A DNA stretch of 64,000 bases from Vampirovibrio chlorellavorus (GTDB lineage: Bacteria > Cyanobacteriota > Vampirovibrionia > Vampirovibrionales > Vampirovibrionaceae): assembly GCF_003149375.1 (NCBI RefSeq), contig NZ_QFWH01000005.1, positions 14,004-78,003 of the forward strand. The letters run 5' to 3'. Made by a program: the position numbers and the translations under genes. Every line of letters begins with the position of its first letter. Positions within the stretch are counted from its first letter, which is position 1. Positions 2,811 through 32,147 of the stretch are shown in pieces. The notes beneath the pieces were generated by a model. The model did not search any database, was not told the origin of the DNA, and saw only the letters and a list, made by a program, of their open reading frames with translations.

Positions 2811-3587
2811 TTAATGACTAGCCGGATGACTGGCAGGGCTGGACGATCTTGAAATCAGTTTTCGGAGTGATCGAAAAAAGTAGACAGCGGTTTGACGCAT
2901 CAGCCAAAGCTCCAGCTTGACGCTCCAATTGGTAATGTACCAGAGATCCGCGTCTGTTTTTTCCTGGATCTGATCCACCGTGGGATTCGGGTTTTTCATT
3001 TGAGCGTAGCCGGTGATTCCGGGCCTGAAAAAGTGCCTGCAACTGTAATTCTGAACATCCTCATCACGGAACCGCTTTACAAAAACAGGACGCTCCGGGC
3101 GTGGGCCTATCAATGACATTTCGCCCAACAGAATATTCCAGAGCTGGGGCAATTCATCCACGTGCGTTTTCCGTAAAAAGCGCCCAATTGCCGTAATTCG
3201 CGCATCTCCCTCCTGCACCCAGGTGGGGCCTGTTTTAGCTTCCGCCTGATCCACCATGGTACGAAACTTGATCAGGGTAAACGGCTTTTCATAAATCGAC
3301 AATCGCTCCTGACGAAATAAGACCGGCCCCGGCGAGGTCAGTTTAATGGCCAGGGCAATCAGCACAAAAAGGGGGGCAAAAAAAACCAGTCCCAGGCTGG
3401 CAAGGATCACATCGAACACGCGCTTGAAACCATACCACCGACGATACTCCACAGAGGGGGTAAACGGCATGTATTCCAGCAAAAAGCGCTCCGAGGCCGC
3501 TTCTGGCTCAGGAAGGGAAGATTGCCTGGGAAATGATGACGGTTCCATCAAAAAAACAAACTCCTCGATTGGCCTTATGCGTTGCAC
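2811..3587 (-). CDS. bacterial sugar transferase (polyprenyl-phosphate glycosyl-1-phosphate transferase, WbaP/WcaJ C-terminal type)
   Basis: FKRVFDVILASLGLVFFAPLFVLIALAIKLTSPGPVLFRQERLSIYEKPFTLIKFRTM matches the bacterial sugar transferase (PF02397-type) signature. True start is probably an internal Met. Confidence 0.75.
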   Translation of the reverse strand: MQRIRPIEEFVFLMEPSSFPRQSSLPEPEAASERFLLEYMPFTPSVEYRRWYGFKRVFDVILASLGLVFFAPLFVLIALAIKLTSPGPVLFRQERLSIYEKPFTLIKFRTMVDQAEAKTGPTWVQEGDARITAIGRFLRKTHVDELPQLWNILLGEMSLIGPRPERPVFVKRFRDEDVQNYSCRHFFRPGITGYAQMKNPNPTVDQIQEKTDADLWYITNWSVKLELWLMRQTAVYFFRSLRKLISRSSSPASHPASH

Positions 3588-4603: not shown

Positions 4604-4687
4604 ACTTTAACACCCAACAAGCACTTTCTTGACTCTACTTTGGTTCATATCGGCGAGGGCAGGGAAAACTTTAAGCCAATTTCAAAT

Positions 4688-7308: not shown

Positions 7309-8660
7309 GGCGTGACTACGTTGGTATTGTCCAGAATGTACTTGATATTGGCCGCGGGCAAGGTGATGGCAGAGGCCGCCCCAAACGTGGATTTAATCCA
7401 GTGCTTCCAGTTTCCTTTGGACACAATCACGGAATCATTGGGAAACAGAATCATATCTTTCCTGGTGGCATCCACTTTTAAAGCCAGCATTTGTTGATTG
7501 GGCAGGGTTCTGGCCACAATAACCTGCCGGGGCTCCGCTTTATCAACATCAAGCCCGGCTTTGGCCAGCACGCTTTGTAAGCTCATCTCGGTAGGGCTTA
7601 ACTGGTACACATCCGGACGCGTTACATAACCGTAGACCCGAATGGGATAGGTCTCCTGCCCCAGATTGCTGTTTGCCAGCAGTTTCAGTACCTCAGGGTG
7701 ATTCCACTGAGCGTTTTCCAGTCGGGGAACGTAGATCACATCTTCCAGCCCCAGGGCAACATCGTTCGCCAATGCCCCGTAAGCCAGTAATTCAACAATG
7801 TTGGCCTCCACGCAAGAGGCGTTATTCAGGTTAAACACCCTTACATGGGCCAAATCCGCATCGGCCAGTAAACCGCCCGCTTTCACCAGGGCTGAACTGA
7901 GGTGGTAATCCAGTCTGGGCGGATTCACGCCAAGCGGTGTGATGGCGGAATTATCCTGCCCATCCAGTAGATACAGTCCGGGTTTTTTTACCGCTCCCAG
8001 AATATAAATGCGCTGCGGGGCAATTTTGTCCAGTGACACCGTCACTGCGGGATGACGCAAGGCGCTTGCGAATCCCTTGGTCAATACCGCAGTCAAACTG
8101 TCTACACTGTGATTGATGGTATTGACCTTACCCAACAAGGGCAAGGCAATGGTGCCATCGGGGGCGATTAAAAGGTTCCGAAGGGAAAATTCCGGATGAC
8201 TCAGCACCTGCAAGGAAATGACATCCCCCGGCTTTAAATGATAGTCCTGCCACTCGGCTTTGGCCACCAAAGGGTGATTCTCTTGATGACTGAGCGAAAC
8301 CGGATGAAAGCCTTTTTCTGGAGATGAGGCCGATGAAGCGGGCTGAGTGCTTTCCAGCGTTGCCTGAGGGTCGGACTTTGCATTTTGAGACAGGAGCTGT
8401 GTCCACCAGACCGAGAAGTCCTTGTCCGTCAGCACCACTGAAGAGGTGCTTTTCAGGGAACTCAGGGAAAGCGGCGCCGGATCTCGCTCCGCTTCCTCCA
8501 ATGAAAAACGGGTAACCGCGGACTCCGCATTCGCCTGCTGATGAGGCCCTTTCGCGGGCTCTGTGGCCATGGCGTTCTGCATGCCGAGCAACACCAGTGC
8601 CCCCCACACAGACAAGGCGGCTAGGGATTTTGGGACATTCTGTTTGAGAATCAACGACAT
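7305..8660 (-). CDS. polysaccharide export protein (Wza-like outer-membrane exporter: Poly_export plus SLBB domains)
   Basis: Signal peptide (ALSVWGALVLLGMQNAMA). The motif YHLKPGDVISLQVL...APDGTIALPLLGKV is a typical Poly_export (PF02563) signature. Confidence 0.7.
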   Translation of the reverse strand: MSLILKQNVPKSLAALSVWGALVLLGMQNAMATEPAKGPHQQANAESAVTRFSLEEAERDPAPLSLSSLKSTSSVVLTDKDFSVWWTQLLSQNAKSDPQATLESTQPASSASSPEKGFHPVSLSHQENHPLVAKAEWQDYHLKPGDVISLQVLSHPEFSLRNLLIAPDGTIALPLLGKVNTINHSVDSLTAVLTKGFASALRHPAVTVSLDKIAPQRIYILGAVKKPGLYLLDGQDNSAITPLGVNPPRLDYHLSSALVKAGGLLADADLAHVRVFNLNNASCVEANIVELLAYGALANDVALGLEDVIYVPRLENAQWNHPEVLKLLANSNLGQETYPIRVYGYVTRPDVYQLSPTEMSLQSVLAKAGLDVDKAEPRQVIVARTLPNQQMLALKVDATRKDMILFPNDSVIVSKGNWKHWIKSTFGAASAITLPAANIKYILDNTNVVTP

Positions 8661-8707
8661 ACGATATTTTCCAGCTCTGTTCAGGAAACGGCTTTTGGGG
8701 GAATTTT

Positions 8708-10777
8708 TTAAGGGAAAACAACGTTCCCGACAATCTGCTCCGGCTGAATCGACGACTCCAGAAACTTCAATTCCCGGACATCGCTGGCGGACTTTGAAAT
8801 CCCCAGAATGACGCCATCAGCGATATCCTCGATCAGGGCAACCCTATTCTGTCGTTCGATTGCCGCAGGCTGACCAGCGACAGGATTGCCACCGGTAGCG
8901 GACATCCACGGGTGCAGGAAAATCAGGTGAAAGCCCTGCTGTGCTTGCAGGTTTTTCAGGAAGCCGGGATCCAGAATATCTTCATCCACAGTTTCAGCGA
9001 GTAACTGGTAAAGATTCTCCTGGGTACAGGAGCGATACAATTCCAGGCGTCCCAGTTTGAGAACCAGTCGCTTATTGCGGAAGGGATTGAAGAGTGCAAA
9101 GCCATCCAGTTCTGCGGCCCGTTGCGTGAAATATAAAACCTTCAGCTCCGGATGCTTAAAGGCGTACAGCCCGCTCAATACACTGGCCAGATTGCCAGGG
9201 TGCCAGAACATCTCGGGCTTTTTACCGGAGCCATCCACATAAATGGGCAAGGCGCAACGAGAGTCCGCATTGTCAAACAGGGAAATAAACAACAGGGTTT
9301 GAATCCCTCGCTTGCGAATCTGAAGGGCGATACCCTGACCAAGGGCCGCAAGCTCCTCATACAAAGTTTCGGTGGTACGGGGCAATCTGCCGGAAAAACT
9401 GCCCAGTGAGAGGCCCGGTCTTTCCAGCAACGGAATACGAGGATCCAGAAATTCAGCGATGGCCACACTGGACAGCGCCAGAACCAGACTGGCCATCCCC
9501 CCCAGTATTAAAGTGGTTTTCAAGGAAATGGGAAATACGGCATCGCCCTGTTCCGGCTCGATGGGTGGCGTCAAAACCACAAAGGCACCCAAATTCAGTA
9601 GGCTGGCTTGCTCCAGTATGGTTTCCTGAATTTTATCCTGTAGCTTTTCCTCTTCGCTTTTCAAGGCGTTCAGAGCCAAGCGCAAGTCATCCATGTCCTT
9701 TTTCTCAAAAGCGACCGCTTTAAAGCCACTATCCAGCTGAGACAAAAAACTCTCGTAATAGGATTTTTGCTGAAGCAGGGCTGCCCGCTGCGTCGTCAGC
9801 TCGATGAGCTGCTTGCCAAACGTAACGTCCAAATCACTGAAGGCCTTGTCCTCTCCCACCAGTGCGGCAGGATGAATGTTCTGGCTGTAACTGGACTGGA
9901 TGCGCTGACCAATCAAACGCTCCAGACGTTGAATCAGATCTTCTTTCTCCAGTACCACCGGATAGCTGTCTGTAAAGGCGGATTTCAGTTTTGCCAGTTC
10001 TCCCTTTTCCATGGCCAGTTGCTTCTGCCAGATTTCCAGCTTGGGATCACTTTTAATACTGACCAGGCGCTGTACCTGTGCGGGAGACAATCCCAATATT
10101 CTTTCCAGGTGTTTGATCTGCTTTTCAGTGGCCAGAATTTCAGCACTGGTAGTGCCCAGCAACTGTGTAAAATTGCTTTTTAACTTAACCAACTCCGAGT
10201 TTTTTAGATCAATATCGGTGGTGCCGCTGGCAGCTTCCACCTGTTTCAGGTTTTCGGCCAACTGGTGACGATTTCTCTGCACTTCTGCCAGTCGCACCTT
10301 CAGGAAGTCGATCCCCTTCAGGCGGGTTTCCTGAGCAATGTGCGCCAACGCCTCCTCGTAAGATTTGAGGGTATGATCCAGCACTTTTTTGGCAAAGTGA
10401 GCCGAAGTATCCTGAAAATACAGATCAATAACCTTGGTAACCTGACTCAGCTCCGTACTCACGTTGCTGTCGGCTCTCAAACGTCTCAGCAACAGGTCCT
10501 GGGCCACGTCCTCCCGCTTGGGAAACTCTTTTCTCAGCCGACTCACCACTTTATCAAGCACCAGATTGGACTTTAAAATCCGGATATGATCCAGGGTGTC
10601 ATCATACTCGTAAGCCTGATACTGGTTTGGAATTTTTCGCTGAATATAAACGCTGGATTTCACCTCATACACGGGGGCGCTCAAAAAGTGAATCAGCACG
10701 ACCGTCAGAAACGAAAAACAGAATATAGCCGTTGCCAGCCAGCGATGGCGCTTTAAGACCAGAAAAATGGAGTCCAT
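8708..10777 (-). CDS. polysaccharide co-polymerase (GumC/Wzc-like chain-length determinant) with degenerate C-terminal kinase-like domain
   Basis: N-terminal TM, long coiled-coil periplasmic region, second TM, then a roughly 250 aa cytoplasmic domain. I found no canonical Walker A (GxxxxGK[ST]) in that domain. Confidence 0.6.
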   Translation of the reverse strand: MDSIFLVLKRHRWLATAIFCFSFLTVVLIHFLSAPVYEVKSSVYIQRKIPNQYQAYEYDDTLDHIRILKSNLVLDKVVSRLRKEFPKREDVAQDLLLRRLRADSNVSTELSQVTKVIDLYFQDTSAHFAKKVLDHTLKSYEEALAHIAQETRLKGIDFLKVRLAEVQRNRHQLAENLKQVEAASGTTDIDLKNSELVKLKSNFTQLLGTTSAEILATEKQIKHLERILGLSPAQVQRLVSIKSDPKLEIWQKQLAMEKGELAKLKSAFTDSYPVVLEKEDLIQRLERLIGQRIQSSYSQNIHPAALVGEDKAFSDLDVTFGKQLIELTTQRAALLQQKSYYESFLSQLDSGFKAVAFEKKDMDDLRLALNALKSEEEKLQDKIQETILEQASLLNLGAFVVLTPPIEPEQGDAVFPISLKTTLILGGMASLVLALSSVAIAEFLDPRIPLLERPGLSLGSFSGRLPRTTETLYEELAALGQGIALQIRKRGIQTLLFISLFDNADSRCALPIYVDGSGKKPEMFWHPGNLASVLSGLYAFKHPELKVLYFTQRAAELDGFALFNPFRNKRLVLKLGRLELYRSCTQENLYQLLAETVDEDILDPGFLKNLQAQQGFHLIFLHPWMSATGGNPVAGQPAAIERQNRVALIEDIADGVILGISKSASDVRELKFLESSIQPEQIVGNVVFP

Positions 10778-11184
10778 GGCTGTCCAGCTCTCCCAAATGA
10801 CCGTTCTTGAACCCTTCGCTTGGGAAAAACGCGCCGTAGCCCCGGCAGGCTAAAGAACGTTGTTCGGTCAATCACCGATCCCAACCGGTCATGTTCATAT
10901 TAGTCTCAAGCCAGGACAGACTTTATCCTTTAAATACAGGAGTTATTGGCGTCCCGCTCACAGTCCCCTGAATGGGGTACAGCCTCGCGAACAACCACCC
11001 AAGCGGGGCCGAATCGGGTAAAAATCCAAACGTTCGAAGATTTATCCTGCCAGTTCATTATTTTCACTTTTCAGCGTTTTAGTTTTTTTTCCAGCCTTTC
11101 AGCCCGAGACTGGAAACTGGCAAACAGTGCCAAAAGCGGGCCAAAACGCGTTTGGCAGGACGTGAATGGCTTAAGCGGGCCTGT

Positions 11185-11490
11185 TTACTTTTTCAGCCGC
11201 TTGTAACCCATATAGCTGGCGGATGACAAAGCGGCAACCGCGACCAGGGCCAGACCCGGCGTTTTTTTGGGGCCATTCCCATTACCATGTCCGTTGGCAT
11301 TTCCGTTTCCATTCCCGGGAGCCGCCTCCGCAGTGAGGGTAACGGCGCTGAGCAACAGGACGGTTACCGTACACAGCAAACCAGCGATTCTGAAAAATTG
11401 ATTCACAGCAATGCCTCTCATACTTATTTTACCCACAGAGAAATAAGAGTCCCTCATTTGAATGTTGATCCATGTTTTTATAAATGTCAA
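11185..11490 (-). CDS. small secreted Gly/Asn-repeat protein with C-terminal TM helix plus basic tail (candidate exosortase substrate)
   Basis: Predicted signal peptide ...LLLSAVTLTAEA, then APGNGNGNANGHGNGNGPKKTPGLALVAVAALSSASYMGYKRLKK ending at the stop. The track ORF starts at a TTG; the real start is probably the internal ATG near 11457 or 11421. Confidence 0.4.
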   Translation of the reverse strand: MTFIKTWINIQMRDSYFSVGKISMRGIAVNQFFRIAGLLCTVTVLLLSAVTLTAEAAPGNGNGNANGHGNGNGPKKTPGLALVAVAALSSASYMGYKRLKK

Positions 11491-11582
11491 TCTTTTTGCA
11501 GGATTTCCGATAAATCTTACCCTGTTCGAACTATTTAAAACGCGCTCATCCCCCTGAGAAGAGCCTCCGGAGCATTTACCCG

Positions 11583-13115
11583 GTGAAAATTTCTGATTTA
11601 CGAAAAAAATTAACTCTGGACGGTTTGTTACTGGCTGTCTTGCTGGTACTTCTCAGTCTGCCCGTGTTGACAAGCTGGCTGGAAACACTCTGGCAACGCC
11701 CGCTGGATCACAATTTAATTCAGCTGGGAGGCGCTATTGTATTGCTGTTTGCCCTCTTGAACAGCTTCAAGCGTGAGGCACTCAAAAAAGCCCTCACCGG
11801 GTCACCCCTTCTGAACACAAGCTGGATAGGCCTGGCTTTGTTAAGCGGGGTTCTTTTGGTGCACGCCCTGTTTGACTTTCTGCATATTAAATCGTTGTAC
11901 TGGATGAGCTATTTGGGAATACTGGCTTTTTCAGGCTGGACATTGCTTGGATTTCAGCGTTTCCTGCACTGTTTGCCGTACTTTCTGTTTTCAGCGTTTC
12001 TGCTGCCCGTGGTCAACGCGGAAATCCACACAGCCATCAGCCTTCCGTTGCAACTGGCTTCAACCTGGCTGGCCACCCAATTTTCCGCCTTGTTTATACC
12101 ACTCACCTACCATCAGAATATGATGTACATTAAGGGAGAAACTTTTGAAATCACCGCTGATTGCAGTGGCCTGCAGAGCTGGGTCGGGTTTATTTTCGCG
12201 GGGCTGCTCAAACATCTTTTTGAAGGGCTTCAAAAGCTGGAATTGGCTTTACTCATCCCCATTTCCCTGATTCTGGCCCTGTTTCTGAATAGTGTAAGGC
12301 TATGCCTGACCGCGCTGGTTGCCTACTTCGCCTCCGCCGATCAGGCGCTGGCCATCCATACCAATCTGGATTATGTGCTGCTACCCCTTGGGTTCTATCT
12401 CATCTGGGAAAGTGGCCATTGGCTCAAAGCCCGGTTCCCGGTCAAAGGGGAAGAACCGAATCCGGACAAAGCGCATCCCGCCTCTTCCGCAAAAAACAGG
12501 CTGATTACCGGAATCACGGCGTGTCTGTTCCTTTGCGTCATCGTGTTTCACTGGGTGGTGAACGTGCCACTGAACCACCCGACGCCAACGACTCTGAGCG
12601 TTCCCCATCATCTGGCAGACTGGCAGGGTTCGGAGCTGGCTCTATCGGAGGCCGAAAAAAAATCGCTGGCAGGGGCGCAAATTATCAATCGGGCCTATCA
12701 CCGCCCCAATCAACGGGTGTTGCTGACCGTGCTGCAAAGTGACTCTCCTGAATATATTCATAACTTTTGGGGATGTTTGGTGGGGCAGGGGCTTCAGCCC
12801 AAACAGGTGGCGCAGTTAAAGCTGACCCTGAATCAGCGGGTTTACGCCATTCCGGTCCTGCAGTATGAGTATGAGGGAAGGCAGTATTACGAAGCGCTCT
12901 GGTACCAGTGGGATAGCGGCATTACGGCCAGTCGGTGGCAATGGTATCAGGCGGTACTGCAATCCCGCTTTGGAAAACCACCCTCTGGCTGGAAGATTGT
13001 CACCGTCACCATGCCCTTACCGCTGCAGAACCCTACAGAATCCCGGCAGGACGATATCAGCATTTTGCAGGACTTTTCCGCGCTGATGCTTAAGACCCTG
13101 AGCCCAAATCCCTGA
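11583..13115 (+). CDS. exosortase family protein fused to EpsI-like C-terminal domain
   Basis: Polytopic N-terminal half with the exosortase-type motif ITADCSGLQS (conserved Cys) and downstream NSVRLCL (Arg). Soluble roughly 190 aa C-terminal domain resembling the exosortase-associated EpsI family. GTG start. Confidence 0.65.
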   Translation: MKISDLRKKLTLDGLLLAVLLVLLSLPVLTSWLETLWQRPLDHNLIQLGGAIVLLFALLNSFKREALKKALTGSPLLNTSWIGLALLSGVLLVHALFDFLHIKSLYWMSYLGILAFSGWTLLGFQRFLHCLPYFLFSAFLLPVVNAEIHTAISLPLQLASTWLATQFSALFIPLTYHQNMMYIKGETFEITADCSGLQSWVGFIFAGLLKHLFEGLQKLELALLIPISLILALFLNSVRLCLTALVAYFASADQALAIHTNLDYVLLPLGFYLIWESGHWLKARFPVKGEEPNPDKAHPASSAKNRLITGITACLFLCVIVFHWVVNVPLNHPTPTTLSVPHHLADWQGSELALSEAEKKSLAGAQIINRAYHRPNQRVLLTVLQSDSPEYIHNFWGCLVGQGLQPKQVAQLKLTLNQRVYAIPVLQYEYEGRQYYEALWYQWDSGITASRWQWYQAVLQSRFGKPPSGWKIVTVTMPLPLQNPTESRQDDISILQDFSALMLKTLSPNP

Positions 13116-19104: not shown

Positions 19105-19722
19105 CTAATTTTCCAGGCAAATGCGCATGCCGGTATCCTGATCGGTGATGGCCTCCGTGGCATACGGGCTGGCTGTTTTGTCCCCAAATCCTGCCTGCGT
19201 CGCCCGGGAGGTGGGTTGTGGGGTGGCCGGGGGCGTCTTTTTCATGCCGGAAAAGTATTTATGGAATTTCCCGTGGATGATTGAAAGCAAATCCTGAGCC
19301 TCGTGCAATCCGCCCTGCACGTAGGTTCCGGTCAATCGTTCCACGATGGTTAGCTGGATTTTTTGCGAGTAGACCTGGCATAAGTCCATAAACTCTCGCA
19401 CCACCCGGATCATATCGTTCACTTTCACGGCCAGAAAAAACTGATCCGAAGGCTCCAGAATCATTAAATAGTTCATCGCTTTGGACAGGTACGGGTCCAG
19501 ATCATAGTCACGGCGTCTGGCCCGGGACTTATACAGGGCCAAAGCCTTGTCCTTGCCCAGACTTTTTAGGTCGTTAATGCGAATGTGGGCATTGAAGTCA
19601 CTTTCAGCGATTGAACACATCCCCTTGGCCAGAATCGAGCGGATATCCCCGGAAAACCCGAATAGAGAAGTCACGGCCTCTTTGACCGTGGGGTTTTTCT
19701 CGTAAAAACGAACATGGGTCAT
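19105..19722 (-). CDS. hypothetical protein (paralog of the 796..1326 product)
   Basis: 205 aa. Colinear similarity to the 796..1326 product over about 110 aa (LKSLG...RRRDYDLDP...ILEPSDQ) with a divergent C-terminal tail. Confidence 0.55.
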   Translation of the reverse strand: MTHVRFYEKNPTVKEAVTSLFGFSGDIRSILAKGMCSIAESDFNAHIRINDLKSLGKDKALALYKSRARRRDYDLDPYLSKAMNYLMILEPSDQFFLAVKVNDMIRVVREFMDLCQVYSQKIQLTIVERLTGTYVQGGLHEAQDLLSIIHGKFHKYFSGMKKTPPATPQPTSRATQAGFGDKTASPYATEAITDQDTGMRICLEN

Positions 19723-19963: not shown

Positions 19964-20752
19964 TTAAATCAGGCCTGCGCCCAGCAACAGGCCGTAAGCC
20001 ACCAGTAAAATGCCCACAACCGTCTGCATCCAGGACAAGGTCACTTTTTGCAGCCAGCGACTGCCCAGCCAGGTGCCCAAAAAAGCGCAAGCCATGGCCC
20101 AAAGCAGCAACTGCCACTGGGCTGGAGTCTGGAGCAGCGCCTGATGCCCCTGAGTCAGGGTAAACCCATACACCCCAATGCGGGCCACATCCACCAGAAC
20201 CGCGGCCAGCACTGTTGTCCCGATGAAAGCCTGCTTGTCCAGACCGAGTCGAATTAAAAAGGCCGAACGAAACGCCCCCTGATGGCCGGTCAAACCGCCA
20301 AAAAAACCGGACAACGCCCCACCCAGGGGAACCCACTGCCGGGACAGGGTCAACGCTCTGAATTTGGGGCTTAACTCCAGACTGGCAAAGACAATCATCA
20401 GCAAGCCGATGGTGAACCGAATCGGCGTTACCTGAAACCACTGCGCTTGCCAGAGGTATTGGAACAACGGGGGGAGCGCATTCAGGTACTGAAGCAGAAA
20501 AGCGCCTCCAAAGGCGGCCAGAACGGCAGGCACCGAGAACCTCAGCAACACCCCGGCATGGGCGTGTCTGGCAAACAACAGGGCCTTTAGCAGGTTGTTG
20601 GCCAAATGTACGATGGCCGTGGCGGCAATGGCGATGGGCGGATCAAAAAACACCAGAAACACCGGCAGCAGCAGGGTGCCCAGCCCAAAACCGGAAAACA
20701 GGGTGAGCAGGGAAATCAGCAGGGTTAAACCACCCACAATCAGGAAAGCCAA
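19964..20752 (-). CDS. TauE/SafE family sulfite-exporter-like membrane permease (DUF81)
   Basis: 262 aa, 8 TM helices in two 4-TM halves. Gly-rich motifs (LSGFFGGLTG) typical of the family. Confidence 0.65.
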   Translation of the reverse strand: MAFLIVGGLTLLISLLTLFSGFGLGTLLLPVFLVFFDPPIAIAATAIVHLANNLLKALLFARHAHAGVLLRFSVPAVLAAFGGAFLLQYLNALPPLFQYLWQAQWFQVTPIRFTIGLLMIVFASLELSPKFRALTLSRQWVPLGGALSGFFGGLTGHQGAFRSAFLIRLGLDKQAFIGTTVLAAVLVDVARIGVYGFTLTQGHQALLQTPAQWQLLLWAMACAFLGTWLGSRWLQKVTLSWMQTVVGILLVAYGLLLGAGLI

Positions 20753-20958
20753 TGGAAAACACCTCCCCTTGATGATGATGAACGCCTACTGTAATACAAA
20801 CCCCATCACCCTTGCACGGGCAGCCAAGATCCGCCTGAAAATGCAAAAGGAAATCGATGCCGCTTTGACCGCATGATAAACATTGCCTGTTCTGGCAATA
20901 GGCGCGCCCTGTATCAACCGATATAATTCCAGATTGGGATGATTAAGGGTTCATTGTT

Positions 20959-21159
20959 ATGGAAATTCGTCACACACGCTGTCCGAACTGCGGGAAACTG
21001 TCTGTGGTCACGCAGGACATTGAGGTCCTGTGTGATTCCGCGCTGCTGGTAAAACTGGAGAACCGCATTCAGCGTTGCTGCCAGCAATGCGGCTGGATGG
21101 ACTTTCTGGACATTGACCTCGATAATCCCCCGTCCGCTGCCTCCACCACCCACCGATAA
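20959..21159 (+). CDS. small zinc-ribbon protein, hypothetical
   Basis: 66 aa with CPNCG ... CCQQCG Cys pairs. Confidence 0.35.
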   Translation: MEIRHTRCPNCGKLSVVTQDIEVLCDSALLVKLENRIQRCCQQCGWMDFLDIDLDNPPSAASTTHR

Positions 21160-21211
21160 CGATCGCTCCCCAGTTCGGGCAGTAAATCCCACCACAAAAA
21201 GGGAGATGGCT

Positions 21212-21430
21212 ATGGAACCGGAATCCGCTCACCTGATTTTACCCGCCAACCTGTATCGGCAATTCAGCCGTTTGAAAACCATGGGCCAGTTTCAAAGCGA
21301 TGCGGACGTGTTGCAAGCCAGCCTGACCGCGCTGGAGCAGCAGTGGGCACACCACCGCCTGGAAAGGGCTCACGGCAGAACCCCCTACATGTCCCGCCCT
21401 CCCATGAGTATTGAGGACTATGACACCTGA
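21212..21430 (+). CDS. small ribbon-helix-helix-like (ParD/CopG-type) protein, hypothetical
   Basis: ATG at 21212 lies 6 nt after GGGAG. 72 aa; the AHLILPANLYRQF beta-strand then helices (LQASLTALEQQW) resemble RHH antitoxin folds. The track ORF extends further upstream. Confidence 0.3.
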   Translation: MEPESAHLILPANLYRQFSRLKTMGQFQSDADVLQASLTALEQQWAHHRLERAHGRTPYMSRPPMSIEDYDT

Positions 21431-23397
21431 GCGGGCCAATCCACGATGCCATCGTCCGCCGGGTCCGCCGGGTCCGCCGGGGCGTCATTCCCTCGGGCTC
21501 TGGACAGGCACAGTTCGGATGCCTGACGGACTGTGGGCAAAATCTGTTCCTCCAGAAAGCTGGCCGCCGACTGGCAAAAGGTTTTAATCACCTTCTGGGC
21601 CTTCAAGGGGCCATCCGGTAGCGTTAAAGTTTCCTGAAACTGCTCCCGATACGCTCGCATTTCATGAATCAGCAAATAGGCGGCAAAGGGGGCTTCCGAA
21701 AATCGGGTGTAAATGGCCTGATTCACCCCCAGGGTCAGGTTGGCCAGCTTCCGCAAATCGGATTGATTGCGGCCCGCCAATCGTCCCTGCTCTTTTAAAA
21801 AGCGGATGTGACCGATCAGTTCCACCTGCAAATCCTGAATCGCTTTGTTCAGGGACTTGGCCCGACCCTGTTGCGCTTCCGCCGTCCATGCCGGTGGCTG
21901 GGACAGGGCGTGGGGCTGCTTCCAGCAGGGCCACTGACCCACCCAGCGCTGTAAGTCCAGCAGCGGGAAGCCTTCGATATGCGCGCCGCCCAGGGAGGCG
22001 TTCCACAGTTGCGCAGGTCGTTCGCTTTTGGCGTTCAAGGCGGCCATCTCTTCCAGATGAATCAAGAAACTCTGGTAGGACTGCAAGGTGGGCAGTGGCT
22101 TGCCATCCTGCCCCGGCACGGTGGTCAGGTCGTAAGGGGCGGTGTACAAGCTCTCGGAGGCTTCCAGATCCAGCTGCCCCTTCTCGTTCAGGCGCATAGC
22201 GACGCCACCGGCGTACACCTGATTGTGAGGAAAGGCCAGATCCTGCCCGACCAGCGCAATGGGATTACAGCCCATCCGTTGGGCCATCTGGAAGCCAATG
22301 ATCGACACGGTACCCCCGCCGCCCAAACGGCAATGCTTGCGCTGCAAGGCCTCATCCAGAAAATCCACAAACTGCATGTTATTTTGAGCCAGCATCAACA
22401 GCTTGCCCCGGCTGGGCATGTCAAACACAGCGGGCTGGGTAAAGGGGCTCATAACAAAGGTGATCTGCTCCAGGTAGGCGTCTGGCAAGCCATGCACCTG
22501 CTCCTTCATGCCGTTGGCGTCGTAAAACAAGGCGAAATCCGGGGTAATGCCGTGATCGTGTAAACGATGCAAAGCCCCGCCTACGGCAATCAGCACCACG
22601 GCATCAGCCAAAGCCCGAACCCAGGGTAGGGCCGCATCCAGAGACGGCCCCCGGGATATGACCAGGGCGGGCTTGTCTGTAAAAGAATCCACCAAGTCAT
22701 CCAGAGTGGGCATGGCGGCAAAATTCGGGGCGTTGCCAAAGAATTGCTGAATCCATTTCTGGTGGAAGTGCTGGCCCGTTTTAAAGTCCTGCACCCGAAA
22801 CAGTTCCATGCGGGTAATCTGCTCCATCAGCGGCTGAATTTCCTGAGCCAATAAAGCGGCACTTCCCCGCAGGGTTAAAATATCCAGCTTGTATTGACTG
22901 TAAAGTTTTTTACGCAAGTACAGCAAAAAGTCCTGCTGATCGCAGAACAGGGCCACCCGGGGCAGCGACAGCAAATGGGCCAGATCCACGTTTTCCAGTA
23001 CAAAGCGCAGCAAGGCCGCATCCGGCTCATACACCACCATCTGACCGGGGCTTTTTTCACTCAGGGCCTCCAGCAGGTACCCCAACCCCAGACCCAGCAC
23101 CACATGCACCCGATCCGCCACCAGGGTGGCCTGTTGGGCAATGACCGCCTCCGCCTCACTCAGTGGGCCCTGAGGATCATGCAAGGCCACCCCCCGGTAC
23201 AACAGGGTGTAGCCGCCATCCGGACAGGGGTTCAGCTCAAACTCGGTGATGGGCGATACGGCCCGCAACTGGTCCACCGTCGCCGCATGCTGGGCATGGG
23301 TGGATAACAAGGCCTGACAATTGGATTCAAAATACATAGGGGCCACCCTCGTTGCTGGCTGTGGGCACTGCTTCAGTTTAGCGTCCCAAACCGGCAA
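21418..23397 (-). CDS. DUF115 / MptE-like (Maf, motility-accessory-factor family) putative glycosyltransferase
   Basis: Central segment ALVISRGPSLD ... GGGGTVSIIGFQMA ... ALVGQDLAF matches the conserved Maf/DUF115 core. 659 aa with additional N- and C-terminal helical regions. Confidence 0.55.
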   Translation of the reverse strand: MPVWDAKLKQCPQPATRVAPMYFESNCQALLSTHAQHAATVDQLRAVSPITEFELNPCPDGGYTLLYRGVALHDPQGPLSEAEAVIAQQATLVADRVHVVLGLGLGYLLEALSEKSPGQMVVYEPDAALLRFVLENVDLAHLLSLPRVALFCDQQDFLLYLRKKLYSQYKLDILTLRGSAALLAQEIQPLMEQITRMELFRVQDFKTGQHFHQKWIQQFFGNAPNFAAMPTLDDLVDSFTDKPALVISRGPSLDAALPWVRALADAVVLIAVGGALHRLHDHGITPDFALFYDANGMKEQVHGLPDAYLEQITFVMSPFTQPAVFDMPSRGKLLMLAQNNMQFVDFLDEALQRKHCRLGGGGTVSIIGFQMAQRMGCNPIALVGQDLAFPHNQVYAGGVAMRLNEKGQLDLEASESLYTAPYDLTTVPGQDGKPLPTLQSYQSFLIHLEEMAALNAKSERPAQLWNASLGGAHIEGFPLLDLQRWVGQWPCWKQPHALSQPPAWTAEAQQGRAKSLNKAIQDLQVELIGHIRFLKEQGRLAGRNQSDLRKLANLTLGVNQAIYTRFSEAPFAAYLLIHEMRAYREQFQETLTLPDGPLKAQKVIKTFCQSAASFLEEQILPTVRQASELCLSRARGNDAPADPADPADDGIVDWPAQVS

Positions 23398-23441
23398 GGG
23401 CCTCCCTCAGGCAAAGGACTCCCCCGAACGCCCAAGGACGA

Positions 23442-24101
23442 TCAGCGCATGGCCTTGCGCTCGCCAAACCCGGGGGAGGTTTCCGGCAAGCCTTTATACC
23501 CCGGACTGGAGCGCACGAAGGCTTCCAGCGTTCCCGCCTTTAACTCTTTTTCCAGCCGGTTTTCCCGATCCACCAGGGGATGCGTGCCTTCGGCCAGTTG
23601 GGCCAGCGCCGGATTTTTGGCTTTCAGGGCCATCCATACAGTGGCCTCAAATCGCCAGCTTTCCACCTCTTCGCTCAGGGAATTTTCGGCGTCATCGTGC
23701 AAGGCCTCGTGGGCAATCAGGGCGGCCAAGGCCTCCGGCGGCGCCTGACGGTGTTTTTCATTCACAAAAATCACCTGATCCCCCTGATTGCTCATCCAGC
23801 TCAGGGCGTCATAATTCTTCAGGCTTTTGTTCAGCAGACGCATGTCCTTAAACACTACCCGCACCGGTTTGCTGACGATCTGGCGCAGCGACGGTTCCGC
23901 TGGCCCTTCGGTCATCAGCTGAAAGGCCTTTAAAATGCTGTCCTCCCGGGTGCAGTGCAGTAGGGCGGTTAAGCTGTAGCGGGTCTGGGAAAAGGCGGGA
24001 GCCAGGCCATCGGACACCGCCAGACTCAAGAAGATGAGGAGTGAGCAGGCCACCTGTATGCGGGACAAGGGTGACACGGAAAAAACAGGCGCGGTTGGCA
24101 T
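23442..24101 (-). CDS. hypothetical secreted protein
   Basis: N-terminal signal-like segment ACSLLIFLSLAVSDGLAPAFS, then an acidic/helical domain. No recognised family. Confidence 0.35.
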   Translation of the reverse strand: MPTAPVFSVSPLSRIQVACSLLIFLSLAVSDGLAPAFSQTRYSLTALLHCTREDSILKAFQLMTEGPAEPSLRQIVSKPVRVVFKDMRLLNKSLKNYDALSWMSNQGDQVIFVNEKHRQAPPEALAALIAHEALHDDAENSLSEEVESWRFEATVWMALKAKNPALAQLAEGTHPLVDRENRLEKELKAGTLEAFVRSSPGYKGLPETSPGFGERKAMR

Positions 24102-24268
24102 GGCAGTCTAAGCCCCCAATTGGGTGAACGCTACTTTAAAGTGTGCGCAAAATATTGCGATTCTCTATGGAATCGGCGATTTCAGAAAATCTTGAATCCC
24201 ATTTCAAAAAGATCGGGCAGGTGACGGAACCCCCTCCGCTTGGGGTGGCCTGTCTGGCATTTCACTTT

Positions 24269-25492
24269 TCAGAACAGGTACAACCAGCGTAGTACCAGCC
24301 ATCCTCGCAGTCGGGACTGGAAAAACTGAAAAAATCGGGGTTGATGTCCGGTGTAATAGCGCTCCACCAGCCGAATGGCCGTCGCCACACCCGAGGGTGT
24401 GGTTGCTTCCGCATGTTGCAGCACGGCCAGAGACCGGGCGTACCAGCGCGCCAGCCCAATCGCTACCCCCGCCATGGCCACCAGCGCTTGCGCCGAGCCT
24501 CCCGAGGCCAGTAAGCGATTCCGGGTGAGGAGGTTGTAGACAAAGGCTTTCAGCAGGCGCTCGCCCTCAGGCGACCAGCGAACCCGGCCCATATCCTTCA
24601 GGGGCAAGGGCTCTCCAAACAGGCGGGGATCATGGTACAGTTCCCCGCTGAGCAGTTGAAACAGGCTGAAACTTTGATAGGGCTTGCGTAAAAAGTACAC
24701 TAGTAGCGTCTGTTGCCGACCCGCCCAACCCCATGGCATACGGGTGGAAGTCGGTCGCCCGGTATTCGATCGCTGAGCGGTTAAGCTGGCCTGCACCCGT
24801 GACAGGGCTTGATCCGCCGTGCAGTCCTCCGACTGAAACCAGTCCTTCCACTCGGCCCGCAGCCTCTGTAGCGATTCCCAATCCGTTTGCCGAAACAGGG
24901 TTTGCCACACCCGGGCGGGCATGGTTTGCACATCGGCCAGCCATTCTTCCGGCGTACGGTCCAATCTGCATTCCGACTGGCCTTCTGGCAGAGAGGGAGC
25001 CGCAAGGCTTGTGTGTGCCGGCCCTGAAGCCTGCTCCGGTGCCTGCCTCTGTGTCTCAACCGGTGTCTGCCCTCGAGTCTGATCCACTGGCCGGGGCTGA
25101 ATGGGCCGGAAGGCCAGCAGCAATTTTTCCGAAACCGACTTGCAAGCCGCCGAGGTATCGTGAATGGTGGCGCCATTGGGGGCCTTGACCGTGGCAAAGG
25201 GGAAGCGCTGGCACTCATGCGGCTTCAGCGCCAGTCCTTCATGGACTTCCACCAGACAACGTCGATCCGCGCCTAAAAATACGCACACGTTCTCATCGGT
25301 GAGCGGAATGCGGTACATGCTTTCGGACTGGCGCTGTAATTGGCGTCCAGTTTCCTGCAGCCTTTCCTGTACCCAGGGCTTTTGCAGCAAGGCTTCCGCT
25401 TTTTCCGCCTCAATGGGGATGTTCCAGCTACTGCAACACTCCCCGCACAGCTGACACTGAAAATAAACGGCCTGATTTGAGTCCTGATTCAT
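24269..25492 (-). CDS. YkgJ/UPF0153-type Cys-cluster (putative Fe-S/Zn-binding) domain protein with long uncharacterised C-terminal region
   Basis: N-terminal YFQCQLCGECCSSW ... CVFL ... RCLVEVHEGLALKPHECQRFPF matches the CxxCxxCC...C YkgJ pattern. Pro/Gln/Thr-rich linker, then a unique roughly 230 aa domain. Confidence 0.5.
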   Translation of the reverse strand: MNQDSNQAVYFQCQLCGECCSSWNIPIEAEKAEALLQKPWVQERLQETGRQLQRQSESMYRIPLTDENVCVFLGADRRCLVEVHEGLALKPHECQRFPFATVKAPNGATIHDTSAACKSVSEKLLLAFRPIQPRPVDQTRGQTPVETQRQAPEQASGPAHTSLAAPSLPEGQSECRLDRTPEEWLADVQTMPARVWQTLFRQTDWESLQRLRAEWKDWFQSEDCTADQALSRVQASLTAQRSNTGRPTSTRMPWGWAGRQQTLLVYFLRKPYQSFSLFQLLSGELYHDPRLFGEPLPLKDMGRVRWSPEGERLLKAFVYNLLTRNRLLASGGSAQALVAMAGVAIGLARWYARSLAVLQHAEATTPSGVATAIRLVERYYTGHQPRFFQFFQSRLRGWLVLRWLYLF

Positions 25493-25506
25493 ATTCCCTT
25501 ATGATA

Positions 25507-25663
25507 CTAGAAGGTGAGCATCCCTTCCCGACCCGTTTCTAAAACTGCGTGCAGCTCAGACAAACCAATGGAGTTGCTCCTGGCAAAGATGCATCGCGTC
25601 AAGTTGAACTCGCTGTACTCGGACAGTTACAAACGTATCGGGAAGGGATGCTCACCTCCTAGA
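25507..25663 (+). repeat. copy B of the structured intergenic repeat
   Basis: Outer inverted repeat CTAGAAGGTGAGCATCCCTTCCCGACCCG ... CGTATCGGGAAGGGATGCTCACCTCCTAG. Core CGTTTCTAAAACTGCGTGCAGCTCAGACAAAC ... TGGCAAAGATGCA ... TTGAACTCGCTGTACTCGGACAGTTACAAACG. Confidence 0.75.
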
Positions 25664-25693
25664 GTTATGTAACCCCAAGGCTGGAAATGACCC

Positions 25694-26476
25694 ATGTGCC
25701 CGCTGTTATTTGAATTATCTGGTATCAAAATCTATGCCTACGGAGTATTGGTGGCCTTGGCCTTTTTGGTGGGGTTCGCTTTCATCGCCCAAAGGGCCAA
25801 ACAGGCCGGGGATCGGGTGGATGATTATACGGAAGCCCTCATCTGGTTTATTATCGCTGGTATTGGCGGGGCCAGACTGTTTTATTTCATCTGGTTTCCA
25901 GCCCAGTTTTTCAGCGATCCGCTGGGCTCCATCCTCAGTAAGGGGGGATTAGTTTGGTATGGCGGTGTCATTGGGGCTTTTTTAGCCATGGCCATTTACA
26001 CCCGCCTGAGAAAAATCCCCCTGTTGCGCTTTGCCGATATTGTAGCCCCGGCGGCCGCTTTGGGTTTGGCCATCGGACGGATCGGCTGCCTGCTGGCGGG
26101 CTGCTGTTATGGAGCCCCGTGCGACTTGCCCTTGGCCATCCATTACCCCTTGCAACACGAAACCCACGGCTTGGCCGTGCATCCGGCCCCGCTGTACGAA
26201 ACAGTGCTGATGGTGCTGGTCACCTTCGTTTTGATCAAGCTGGATCGTAAAAAACCGTTTGAGGGTTTTACCACCTGGTGGTTCTTTATTCTGGCGGGCA
26301 TAGTGCGTTTTGCGCTGGAGTTTGTGCGAGGCGATCAACTGGTGTGGAGTCAGGAATTACACATTAGCGCCTCTCAGTGGGTGAGTCTGGGGGGCATCGC
26401 CCTAGGCGCTTTCATGCTGGCCTATCTCTCCCGAAAAAAGCAATCCTCTGCCAAACAGCCCCCCGCCTTGGTTTAA
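25694..26476 (+). CDS. lgt: prolipoprotein diacylglyceryl transferase
   Basis: 260 aa polytopic protein with Lgt signature regions (YGVLVALAFLVGF..., GGARLFYF, WYGGVIGA, GRIGCLLAGCCYG). Confidence 0.85.
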   Translation: MCPLLFELSGIKIYAYGVLVALAFLVGFAFIAQRAKQAGDRVDDYTEALIWFIIAGIGGARLFYFIWFPAQFFSDPLGSILSKGGLVWYGGVIGAFLAMAIYTRLRKIPLLRFADIVAPAAALGLAIGRIGCLLAGCCYGAPCDLPLAIHYPLQHETHGLAVHPAPLYETVLMVLVTFVLIKLDRKKPFEGFTTWWFFILAGIVRFALEFVRGDQLVWSQELHISASQWVSLGGIALGAFMLAYLSRKKQSSAKQPPALV

Positions 26477-31188: not shown

Positions 31189-31520
31189 TCTAGCACTGTA
31201 TCTATTAGCCTCCAAAAGAAGCGGTCTGAGCAATTGGGCCGCTTCTTTGGCCATGGGCCTGTTGGGCCTAATCGGTCTATTCCCGACTTGTCCGGCCAAA
31301 GCACCCATGCACGTGCCCGAAAACTCCTGCCGAGCGAAACGTAAAGAAATATAAAGCATTGCATTGAGTTTCTTGAAACTCTGCCGATGATATCCTATAG
31401 GTAAACCCTTGGCAGAGACTGGCGAATTTGAGGCGATAGAATTATCCATCCAGATCTCATTCCTGAATCGTCCGTCCAAACGCCCGTTATTGGGTCATTA
31501 CAGAGAGAAAGTTTCGGAAC

Positions 31521-32147
31521 ATGCGCCTGCTGAGATACCTTTGGCCAGTGGCCCAAAACCAGGCCGCCCCGACAGGTTTTACCCTGGCGGAATTGTTGAT
31601 CAGTTTGCTCATTCTGGCGGAAATCGCCACCTTTTCCATCCCCAAAATCCTCAGCACCCAGCAGGATGCCCGCAAAAAAGCCATTTTCAAGGAATGCATC
31701 GCCACATTGTATGAGCTCAATACAAAGGCCAGGATGGATCTCAGCGCTAACGTGGCCACGCCAGCTTTACAGAGACAGTTTTTTAGAAACAACCTGAATT
31801 ACGTGAAGGAATGTGCCACCAATCCCGGTTTGGAAGGGTGTCTGGAAGTTGGCGCACCCTATTCGGATCCCGGGAATGCTTCCGCCTTTGTGTTGCCGAA
31901 TGGAGCGGTGCTTACCAGTATAAACGGCCCTCCACTGCCCAGTGCAGAGTCGGTGGGCATTGACTGGAACGGCCCGGCTGGCCCCAACACCTTTGGGGAC
32001 GATATTATATCAGTGACGGTGTGCTACGGCCCCAGCGCCTGTAACGGTGGTATTGGCCCGATTCTGATGGGGCCGACTGGCCCAGGTGCCATAGGACCAA
32101 GCGGCAATCTCGAAAGCGTGACTCTGTGGACAGAAATTTTTAACTGA
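31521..32147 (+). CDS. prepilin-type (type IV pilin / pseudopilin-like) protein
   Basis: Leader then G|FTLAELLISLLILAEIATFSI: canonical prepilin peptidase site with Glu at +5 and a hydrophobic helix. Confidence 0.55.
   Translation: MRLLRYLWPVAQNQAAPTGFTLAELLISLLILAEIATFSIPKILSTQQDARKKAIFKECIATLYELNTKARMDLSANVATPALQRQFFRNNLNYVKECATNPGLEGCLEVGAPYSDPGNASAFVLPNGAVLTSINGPPLPSAESVGIDWNGPAGPNTFGDDIISVTVCYGPSACNGGIGPILMGPTGPGAIGPSGNLESVTLWTEIFN

Follow-up and report, generated by a model that had tools for sequence, protein, structure and literature searches.

A conventional Maf/DUF115 glycosyltransferase gene in Vampirovibrio chlorellavorus, probably a relocated copy in a lineage with scattered motility genes

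Characterised Mafs work on flagellin in the cytoplasm, ahead of its export (PMC13317340; bioRxiv 10.1101/2023.12.03.569772). The locus considered here raises the question of what a Maf may be doing away from flagellar genes: within the 64-kb stretch of DNA analysed (hereafter the window), Pfam scans of the long non-overlapping open reading frames reveal no flagellar or nonulosonate (NulO) genes, as a preliminary description of the same DNA had noted. That description proposed that the Maf, together with two upstream genes, might form a glycosylation module acting on a non-flagellar target, for instance the pilin-like proteins encoded elsewhere in the window. The three reading frames and two mini-ORFs on which it was based were all found where it had placed them, and the features of the locus are as follows.

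20959..21159, plus strand: mini66, 66 aa, zinc-ribbon-like (CPxCG...CCQQCGWM), leading a pair of genes that converges on Maf
21212..21430, plus strand: mini72, 72 aa (ALYRQF.RLK ... YMSRP....EDYDT), with a 3′ end overlapping the Maf stop by 13 nt
21418..23337, minus strand: Maf-family (MAF_flag10/DUF115) glycosyltransferase, 639 aa, ATG at 23337
21418-23397, minus strand: maximal Maf reading frame, 659 aa from a TTG at 23397
23442..24101, minus strand: p219, predicted exported small zincin-like protein, 219 aa
24170..24195, minus strand: putative σ28/FliA-like promoter element TCAAGATT-N10-GCCGATTC, situated some 70 nt before the ATG of p219
24269..25492, minus strand: p407, cytoplasmic cysteine-cluster protein, 407 aa, PF03692 CxxCxxCC
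25513..25656, no strand: MITE-like or long-hairpin insertion of 144 bp with perfect 19-bp inverted repeats at its ends (GGTGAGCATCCCTTCCCGA), lying between lgt and p407
25694..26476, plus strand: lgt, prolipoprotein diacylglyceryl transferase (PF01790, E=1.8e-57), divergent from p407

When considered from the sequence point of view, the 639-aa protein is clearly a conventional member of the Maf/DUF115 family. The earlier assignment to this family holds, with the MptE-like domain PF01973 located at residues 218-390 of the 659-aa frame (E=1.7e-33, 116.2 bits against a gathering cutoff of 34.6), and a 639-aa protein that is 100% identical to it is named [quoted passage not shown]. The core motifs GPSxD, GGGTxS, GQDLA and NASxGGA are present, the first three as GPSLD, GGGTVS and GQDLAF, and are common to a flagellin-flanked Maf of Butyrivibrio (25% identity, E=7e-23, residues 79-508); most core residues are invariant among 19 homologues, including GPSL, VS and GQDLA, and T343 is nearly so. 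The protein is organised into a Maf N-terminal domain, a central glycosyltransferase domain (approximately residues 200-470) and a helical C-terminal region. Its description as a 659-aa protein with unique extensions had to be revised in two respects: annotation and orthologues support M21 of the longer frame (ATG at 23337) as the true start, and the N-terminal part aligns with a known structure, the family profile matching the N-terminal domain of PDB 5MU5 (E=4e-18, Maf residues 78-275 on 5MU5 residues 124-326). PF20157 by itself scores 19.9 bits, under its cutoff of 23.5. The C-terminal extension of about 170 aa does stand, as it finds no match beyond Melainabacterial homologues.

Thus, the window Maf resembles known Mafs in its catalytic domain and motifs (GPSxD/GGGT/GQDLA), in sharing the same N-terminal domain, in its length (639 versus 666 aa for 5MU5), in the presence of multiple paralogues per genome and in having relatives in NulO clusters. 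It differs from them in the absence of adjacent flagellin, flagellar or NulO genes, in its Melainabacterial C-terminus, in having no TPR domain, unlike Maf-1, and in having no co-directional GlfM gene, unlike Maf-2. PseD (NCBIfam NF050051) was rejected as its identity, since the score of 66.1 bits against a curated cutoff of 670 makes it a relative only. GlfM is helical, has about 89 aa and is encoded immediately 3′ of a short (about 440 aa) Maf-2, in the same direction (bioRxiv 10.1101/2023.12.03.569772). This arrangement was rejected for the window, where the Maf has 639 aa with a C-terminal domain and the downstream small genes all lie on the opposite strand, which also disqualifies mini72 as a GlfM-type partner. 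The mini-genes are nevertheless real genes, as judged from their protein-level conservation in at least five genomes: mini66 has orthologues of 68-85% identity and mini72 of 39-86% identity in the same five relatives. The view of mini66 as a zinc-ribbon mini-protein in a unit convergent on Maf is borne out by its CPxCG motif, its orthologues and a weak Zn_ribbon_3 match, whilst mini72 belongs to no Pfam family.

Separation from flagellin proves to be general among the loci sampled from the lineage. No flagellin was found within 10 kb of any of about 24 distinct Melainabacterial Maf loci, with the same probe recovering three flagellins around the Butyrivibrio Maf as a positive control; there is thus nothing special to the window in this respect. 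Among the orthologues of the window Maf, no flagellin, flagellar or NulO gene lies within 10 kb, and Mafs beside such genes occur only in the deeper relatives L024, L025 and L026, plus L030. The Maf flanks in L024/L008, L025 and L026 encode NeuB, Epimerase_2, DegT and CTP_transf_3 proteins, so that deeper-branching relatives carry Maf within NeuB/NeuC/DegT/CMP-synthetase clusters. In a neighbour-joining tree, the cassette and aro-linked Mafs, none of which has a NulO gene within 10 kb, are nested in a basal grade of NulO-linked Mafs, and both reference V. chlorellavorus genomes contain a second Maf paralogue. Judged by these sequence relationships, the window Maf is a relocated descendant, one of two V. 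chlorellavorus paralogues. The ancestral state, as seen in the deeper-branching members, would be a Maf inside a NulO biosynthesis cluster, which in the Vampirovibrio clade would have been duplicated and relocated, with one copy landing beside an older lgt<>p407->p219 unit.

According to its genome paper, V. chlorellavorus, which swims with a single polar flagellum, carries every gene required to build one, distributed among more than 10 loci (PMC4451040). The host is thus flagellated according to the literature, with the flagellin gene itself not seen here, and the Maf is a known kind of enzyme in a lineage with dispersed motility genes. Since Mafs lie away from flagellar genes in all sampled relatives, flagellin is still the likeliest target, and the reading that we favour, with reasonable though incomplete confidence, is that of a conventional Maf directed at flagellin in a scattered-gene lineage, encoded by a relocated copy beside lgt<>p407->p219. 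By analogy with characterised Mafs, the enzyme would most likely O-glycosylate the cell's own flagellin on Ser/Thr in the cytoplasm, most likely with a CMP-activated ulosonic acid as donor, and the glycosylated flagellin would then leave via the flagellar type III system. The proposal of a non-flagellar target consequently fares poorly: the host has a flagellum and a scattered gene set (PMC4451040), the Maf-flagellin separation is lineage-wide, and related Mafs sit in NulO clusters or between flagellins. Of the two circumstances that the preliminary description expected for an ordinary flagellin glycosyltransferase, a flagellar gene set elsewhere in the genome is reported in full, whereas the usual Maf context beside flagellin was not found.

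The nature of the sugar donor is a related matter. Mafs can donate Kdo where NulO is unavailable (bioRxiv 10.1101/2023.12.03.569772), making Kdo a possible donor here. An explanation built on this capacity holds that the Vampirovibrio paralogues lost the NulO pathway and that what they now attach to flagellin is Kdo, drawn from the CMP-Kdo of LPS synthesis, or some other sugar. It agrees with the presence of LPS and lipid A genes, with the lack of NulO genes around the cassette- and aro-clade Mafs, and with the absence of any V. chlorellavorus or Vampirovibrio sp. protein from the best 120 relatives of Melainabacterial NeuB, even though NCBI-named proteins of two Vampirovibrio genomes surfaced in other searches. 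However, that absence concerns the top 120 hits, among which a PseI-type synthase, with its identity of about 30%, would not show up; we regard this explanation as unlikely. The missing Vampirovibrio NeuB also counts against a flagellin-directed Maf, as do the failure to recover a flagellin gene of V. chlorellavorus and the lack of an explicit fliC row in Table S3 of the genome paper (PMC4451040).

The gene immediately upstream of Maf encodes p219, previously described as a secreted unknown. Export is supported by a hydrophobic helix at the N-terminus, which runs up to a conserved AFS|QT; the protein is not featureless, as it contains an invariant HEAxH motif (H131-E132-x-x-H135), followed by Glu144/145/152 on the next helix, and its predicted fold is zincin-like. 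Modelling thus casts p219 as a predicted exported HExxH zincin-like protein, and it was compared with minigluzincins and small HExxH zincins such as proabylysin, selecase, Wss1/WLM, YbeY and the M48 protein BepA.

Upstream of p219, an alignment of the p407-p219 spacer from eight genomes shows a single block of invariant positions, T.AA..TT-N10-G.CGA.T. Sites were scored against the σ28 consensus TAAAGTTT-n11-GCCGATAA (PMC2859248). Consensus matches at the conserved position are found in four orthologous loci, two with 15/16 (L006, L013) and two with 14/16 (L003, L029), while the window's own site is degenerate (12/16); shuffled controls over 563 kb contain 0 and 0.3 sites of this quality. These orthologous sites upstream of p219 resemble the σ28 (FliA/SigD) promoters of late flagellar genes (PMC2859248) in matching 14-15 of 16 positions and differ from them in a spacer of 10 instead of 11. 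Taken together, p219 is putatively transcribed from a conserved σ28-type promoter. Maf starts 44-104 nt downstream of p219, and the spacer contains no terminator or stable structure (z=0.42); Maf may thus be co-transcribed behind p219, which would place it in the late motility regulon. No σ28-like site of its own precedes Maf in any clade (best 9-12/16), and a conserved GCTAnnnT box upstream of Maf suggests, from sequence, a separate promoter; these points, like the degenerate state of the window's own p219 site, count against the favoured reading.

Pilin-like genes of these genomes, including the window's own at 31521-32147, stand behind the same promoter type, and the best sites lie before pilin-like genes and a glycan-initiation operon. 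Sequence evidence therefore points to a putative σ28-type regulon in the Vampirovibrionales comprising pilin-like genes, p219 and the glycan-initiation operon. The same motif occurs upstream of a flagellin in the Butyrivibrio (Firmicute) control. This type has not yet been seen upstream of Melainabacterial flagellar genes, an observation counting against flagellin.

It is here that a Maf with a non-flagellar target at the cell surface, for instance the type IV pilin-like proteins, has to be weighed. A promoter type shared by the pilin-like genes, p219 and possibly Maf, a window devoid of flagellar and NulO genes and the unusually large pilin repertoire of V. chlorellavorus (Table S3, PMC4451040) would all be in keeping with it, as would three Mafs in a metagenome-assembled genome (MAG) labelled Coleofasciculaceae. 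That oxygenic cyanobacterial family is non-flagellated. However, faulty binning or taxonomy probably accounts for the label, because the Mafs of this MAG nest inside the Vampirovibrionales clade, and the σ28-like type, being the canonical late-flagellar one, does not favour pilins over flagellin. Moreover, the globular part of a pilin is translocated, and known pilin glycosylation proceeds via periplasmic oligosaccharyltransferases, whereas Mafs are cytoplasmic. Finally, the organism is flagellated, all characterised Mafs in the cited literature modify flagellin, and homologues of the window Maf lie between flagellins or in NulO clusters; we therefore consider a pilin target very improbable.

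The flagellin-directed reading leaves the role of p407 to be considered. This protein was first described as YkgJ-type; the CxxCxxCC domain is indeed present (PF03692, E=1.2e-5, 26.4 bits against a cutoff of 23), whilst the generic YkgJ label gives way to a specifically FliB-like cysteine domain. The NCBIfam FliB model (NF038110) is the sole NCBIfam match for p407 and all seven orthologues, and a generic YkgJ protein encoded in that genome fails to match it. FliB is the SAM-dependent, [4Fe-4S] flagellin lysine-N-methylase of Salmonella, with eight conserved cysteines and an N-terminal CX4CX3CC motif (PMC8598068). In some flagellar glycosylation islands of Clostridium, FliB and Maf genes are known to be neighbours. 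The resemblance extends to the eight conserved cysteines of p407 (C13, C16, C19 and C20 of CX2CX2CC, plus C70, C79, C94 and C117), to a near-equal length (360-420 aa in the family versus 373 positions in the model), to a helical C-terminal half and to the lack of a relative of solved structure, p407 having none in the PDB by fold or profile. Structurally, p407 consists of an N-terminal cysteine domain (1-135), a disordered linker (about 140-185) and a confidently predicted helical C-terminal domain with an ERYYTGHQPRF motif (AF2 model, pLDDT 87, pTM 0.85). Nevertheless, p407 differs from FliB in scoring far under the family cutoff of 85 (33.3 bits over residues 11-143; p407 and orthologues together 28-36 bits, E 1e-6 to 5e-9, N-terminal 130-150 residues only), so that the match is not full-length, in its CX2CX2CC motif, in the C-terminal 250 residues, which show no detectable similarity, and in its partner, which is constantly lgt and not a flagellin gene; no FliB-type flagellin or flagellar locus was found for it.

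On these likenesses, one could envisage a flagellin-modification module with p407 as a divergent [4Fe-4S] methylase of the FliB type acting on lysine (or on sugar), Maf as the enzyme that adds the sugar and p219 as an accessory. Besides the Clostridium precedent, it would draw on the p407-p219-Maf order, retained in at least nine genomes down to 45% Maf identity, and on the most distant p407 homologue, behind which lie genes for a methyltransferase, a NeuB-family synthase and a KdsC/KDN-9-P-type phosphatase. Yet the block SBP-KamA-DUF5069-HxlR-HAD-ispF-lgt is likewise syntenic, so that the order may be mere inheritance, and distant p407 members score no better against FliB and do not bridge to it. 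In sequence comparisons, lgt is the deepest-conserved neighbour of p407 and apparently its oldest partner: the pairing persists in three genomes at 30-34% p407 identity with no adjacent Maf, the Mafs of one of them (L031) lying about 76 kb from p407, and p407 adjoins Maf only in the Vampirovibrio clade. Within the window, the lgt-p407 spacer has grown to 201 bp, against 48-50 bp in two relatives, around the insertion whose GGTGAGCATCCCTTCCCGA repeat occurs in the window only at the two ends of that insertion (0.03 expected by chance). Being exported, p219 cannot join cytoplasmic enzymes acting on flagellin before its export. With a p407-lgt pairing far deeper than that of p407 with Maf, and p219 extracytoplasmic where Mafs are cytoplasmic, the three-gene glycosylation module is not established, and its flagellin-directed form seems doubtful, if a shade less so than Kdo transfer. 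As a FliB-like, putative Fe-S/Zn protein, p407 may, or may not, have a role in modifying flagellin or its sugar.

In Melainabacteria, then, a missing gene neighbourhood is weak evidence on the target of a Maf, and caution is useful. Two uncharacterised families are worth keeping in view: the exported zincin-like p219, and the Melainabacteria-wide p407 with its FliB-like cysteine domain, paired with lgt and twice beside ulosonic-acid or Maf genes. A more far-reaching scenario, which we hold to be a long shot, would have the Vampirovibrio Maf paralogues, cut loose from the NulO cluster, join a FliB-like Fe-S protein and a σ28-controlled exported zincin in a lineage-specific system, one that decorates an appendage for motility or attachment (flagellin or, unusually, a pilin) using a non-canonical donor such as Kdo; if true, the cell surface would bear a modification peculiar to this predator, with relevance for how it attaches to prey. 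The putative σ28-type regulon bears on how V. chlorellavorus, an algal predator and a pest in commercial Chlorella ponds, assembles the apparatus with which it swims and attaches.

The open reading frames (ORFs) named in the preliminary description were found where it had placed them; they are listed here together with the neighbouring lgt:

21418-23337 (-), Maf, a DUF115/MptE-like glycosyltransferase gene (639 aa; maximal ORF to 23397, 659 aa)
23442-24101 (-), p219, an exported zincin-like protein
24269-25492 (-), p407, a Cys-cluster protein
25694-26476 (+), lgt, divergent from p407
20959-21159 (+) and 21212-21430 (+), two mini-ORFs

At 639 aa, Maf has a 100% identical counterpart at NCBI, a Vampirovibrio chlorellavorus protein annotated as [quoted passage not shown]. 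The 659-aa ORF begins with TTG and lacks an exact database match because the annotated protein begins at M21, the ATG at 23337, a start backed by orthologues. The assignment to the MptE-like/DUF115 family held in Pfam (116 bits), and the core residues of the motifs GPSL(D), GGGTVS, GQDLA and NASxGGA are mostly invariant among 19 homologues, the protein being a full member of its family. The "unique extensions" attributed to it were borne out at one end only. The family profile matches PDB 5MU5 (666-aa chain; E=4e-18), the Magnetospirillum Maf, in the N-domain and the first part of the catalytic domain, and residues 79-508 align with a Butyrivibrio Maf (25% identity, E=7e-23); the N-terminal "extension" is therefore the usual Maf N-domain, while the last ~170 residues are indeed unmatched outside Melainabacterial homologues. 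The Butyrivibrio gene sits between three flagellin genes, one of them confirmed against solved flagellins (E=1.7e-97). In Shewanella, flagellin recognition by Maf-1 and Maf-2 involves a TPR domain or GlfM, whereas the window Maf has neither a TPR domain nor a co-directional GlfM-like gene. The mini-ORFs converge on Maf as a same-strand pair, as described, and encode proteins conserved in at least five genomes; GlfM was rejected as their identity on grounds of strand and because the window Maf does not belong to the short Maf-2 type. Nothing points to a functional tie between them and the cassette, that is, the p407-p219-Maf order.

When the long, non-overlapping ORFs of the 64 kb were scanned with Pfam, no flagellar gene and no gene of a nonulosonic acid (NulO) pathway emerged, in agreement with the description; what the window does carry is an exosortase/EPS cluster along with several pilin-like genes and some housekeeping genes. 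The proposal of a glycosylation module acting on a non-flagellar target is nevertheless unsupported, since the organism is flagellated, its flagellar genes are scattered and flagellin is likewise distant from Maf in its relatives. V. chlorellavorus bears a single polar unsheathed flagellum, and all genes needed for it have been reported, listed in more than 10 scattered loci (PMC4451040). Flagellar genes elsewhere in the organism, named beforehand as speaking against the proposal, are thus essentially documented (PMC4451040). Moreover, none of the ~24 distinct Melainabacterial Maf loci fetched for neighbourhood comparison has a flagellin within 10 kb of Maf, and the same probe does detect the Butyrivibrio flagellins. 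The non-flagellar neighbourhood of the window Maf is consequently not meaningful. Table S3 of the genome paper, which does list flagellar genes, has no fliC row, and the terms "flagellin", "fliC" and "sialic" do not occur in its supplements (PMC4451040). The same table gives duplicate flagellar sets for strain NCIMB 11383, namely two fliPQR/flhB, two flgBC-fliEF and two motAB (PMC4451040); duplicate sets with no flagellin row may mean that there are two flagellar-type systems or that the annotation is incomplete.

The history of the gene is consistent with a conventional Maf. In deeper-branching Melainabacteria (loci L024/L008, L025 and L026), Mafs are embedded among genes for NeuB, a NeuC-type epimerase, a DegT aminotransferase and a CMP-sugar synthetase. 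In a neighbour-joining tree, such NulO-linked Mafs form a basal grade, within which the cassette clade, including the window gene, and a clade adjoining an aro operon are nested as derived sisters. Both reference V. chlorellavorus genomes have one Maf of each of these two clades. One relative (L005) carries three tandem copies, and a similar array was considered as the origin of the two paralogues; the tree rules this out, as it places each of the three L005 copies within the cassette clade. The simplest history is that a conventional NulO-cluster Maf was duplicated and relocated. The best reading is that of a conventional Maf, which would glycosylate flagellin while being encoded apart from the flagellar genes, as in all Melainabacterial loci sampled; involvement of the two adjoining uncharacterised families is possible, if unproven.

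Two observations concern the wider sampling. A metagenome-assembled genome (MAG) labelled as a Coleofasciculaceae cyanobacterium (DATNPJ01; L014, L020) has three Mafs nested within the Vampirovibrionales clade, as well as pilin genes with sigma-28-like sites. Coleofasciculaceae are oxygenic, non-flagellated cyanobacteria, and either the binning or the taxonomic assignment is probably at fault. Furthermore, a 205-aa protein without a Pfam family is encoded 1.7 kb beyond the window Maf (19105-19722 (-)); it has orthologues in L009 and L010 and two homologues (28-30% identity) in L021 (16742-17425 and 18374-19039), a distant Vampirovibrionales MAG, 6-8 kb from its two Mafs.

As for the donor sugar, the best 120 matches to a Melainabacterial NeuB, used as a probe for NulO synthases, include no protein of V. 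chlorellavorus or Vampirovibrio sp., which is weak evidence against NulO in Vampirovibrio because a PseI-type synthase would escape this probe. Among the nearest matches, the NeuBs P0236 and P0237 probably lie on the same contigs as the NulO-linked Mafs P0099 and P0098. Nothing on NulO in Vampirovibrio was found in the literature. LPS and Lipid A genes are present in the genome, and Mafs can donate Kdo where NulO is unavailable (bioRxiv 10.1101/2023.12.03.569772).

Turning to the neighbours, p407 is 100% identical to a V. chlorellavorus "YkgJ family cysteine cluster protein", and its CxxCxxCC domain was recovered by Pfam (26 bits). Its sole NCBIfam match, shared by 7/7 orthologues tested, is FliB, at 28-36 bits against a cutoff of 85 and over the first 130-150 residues only; an ordinary 156-aa CxxCxxCC protein of a related genome gave no FliB match. 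FliB is a [4Fe-4S], SAM-dependent flagellin lysine methylase (PMC8598068). The p407 family keeps eight cysteines, the number reported for FliB, whereas its motif is CX2CX2CC as opposed to CX4CX3CC (PMC8598068). In the confident AlphaFold model (pLDDT 87), a disordered linker joins a Cys-rich N-domain to a helical C-domain, and neither fold (Foldseek) nor profile searches returned a relative in the PDB. FliB is encoded beside Mafs in Clostridium flagellar glycosylation islands, and a Maf/FliB-like pair would therefore not be new in kind.

The link between p407 and Maf is weakened by the history of the synteny. The divergent p407-lgt pairing persists at 30-34% p407 identity (L031, L032, L033); in L031, p219 follows p407 with the Mafs ~76 kb off in a NulO cluster, and neither L032 nor L033 has a Maf within 10 kb of p407. 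In close relatives, synteny covers everything from the SBP gene through lgt, so the kept gene order may be mere inheritance. The most distant homologue (24% identity; L035, 10001-13919) is not beside lgt and is followed by genes for a SAM methyltransferase, a 293-aa NeuB-family synthase, apparently without a SAF domain, and a KdsC/KDN-9-P-type phosphatase, up to the contig end. This is a second, independent association of p407 with ulosonic-acid genes. Overall, it is conceivable, albeit rather improbable, that p407 takes part in the modification of flagellin or of its sugar. The lgt-p407 spacer of the window also contains a 144-bp insertion (25513-25656) bounded by perfect 19-bp inverted repeats; two other V. 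chlorellavorus genomes lack it, the window has no further copy of it, and it could be a MITE-like element or form a long hairpin.

For p219, Pfam gave no match and sequence searches against the PDB nothing useful; one distant homologue lies on a contig of only 1.3 kb. The p407-p219 spacer is poorly conserved save for one block, T.AA..TT-N10-G.CGA.T, which holds its sole cluster of invariant columns in eight genomes. The published sigma-28 consensus is TAAAGTTT-n11-GCCGATAA (PMC2859248). Scanning every position on both strands of the window and 26 loci (563 kb) against it (PMC2859248) gave five sites at 15/16 and seven at 14/16, compared with 0 and 0.3 in shuffles; a Butyrivibrio flagellin, preceded by a 13/16 site, served as positive control. 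Sites upstream of p219 score 15/16 in L006 and L013 and 14/16 in L003 and L029, the window site (24170-24195 (-)) reaching 12/16 and resting on orthology. The p219 of L031, with no Maf beside it, keeps a degenerate copy. Judging from these sequences, p219 appears to belong to a sigma-28-type regulon.

This promoter was rejected as Maf's own, no Maf gene having a site of its own. Maf lies 44-104 nt downstream of p219 on the same strand, with no terminator or stable structure between, and read-through is plausible; a generic search of 20700-25800 for sigma-70 promoters and terminators did not rise above background. A GCTAnnnT box conserved ~45 nt upstream of the Maf ATG, in the window spacer (23338-23441 (-)) and its orthologues, may represent a separate Maf promoter. 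A GAGGGAGG box is likewise conserved in the spacer, its orientation differing between genomes. A 14/16 sigma-28-like site at 21625-21652 (+), antisense in the 3' part of Maf with no ORF downstream, may be due to chance or be an antisense promoter.

Prepilin-type genes of L009, L013 and L029 have the other top sites 40-50 bp upstream, and weaker 13/16 sites stand ahead of pilin-like genes of the window and L020. Taken together, prepilin-type genes (G|FTLAELLI, PF07963) have sites 40-130 bp ahead, at 13-15/16:

Window 31521-32147 (+), prepilin-type gene; site at 31364-31390 (+)
L009 542-1243; L013 243-1032; L029 14186-14827; L020 4612-7339, prepilin-type genes with sigma-28-like sites

The arrangement is suggestive of pilin expression under the control of a FliA/SigF-type sigma factor in Vampirovibrionales. 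Another 15/16 site, TAAAGTTT-N11-GCCGATAT at 4647-4673 (-), lies 44 bp upstream of a glycan operon (4603-1366 (-)):

3575-4603 (-), NAD-epimerase/dehydratase, first gene behind the site
2811-3587 (-), Bac_transf phosphoglycosyl transferase
1366-2805 (-), MurJ/Wzx-like flippase

A lipid-linked glycan start module thus seems to share its promoter type with the pilin-like genes, and this operon could be a candidate Maf-independent route for pilin or surface glycosylation. The surrounding EPS/exosortase locus (1366-13115) comprises Wzz-like, Wza-like Poly_export, GT4, epimerase, Bac_transf, flippase and EpsH/EpsI exosortase fusion genes, and a STAS anti-sigma antagonist is encoded at 59524-59898. 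In L028 (1816-3164), a Gastranaerophilales MAG, a 14/16 site lies 39 bp upstream of the gene for a 427-aa protein without a Pfam family, ~7 kb from that genome's Maf homologue.

Apart from the conventional Maf, three side results are of some independent value: a family of exported zincin-like proteins (p219), a FliB-like family whose partner is lgt (p407) and, including the pilin-like genes, the sigma-28-type regulon for surface appendages that appears to exist in the Vampirovibrionales genomes scanned.
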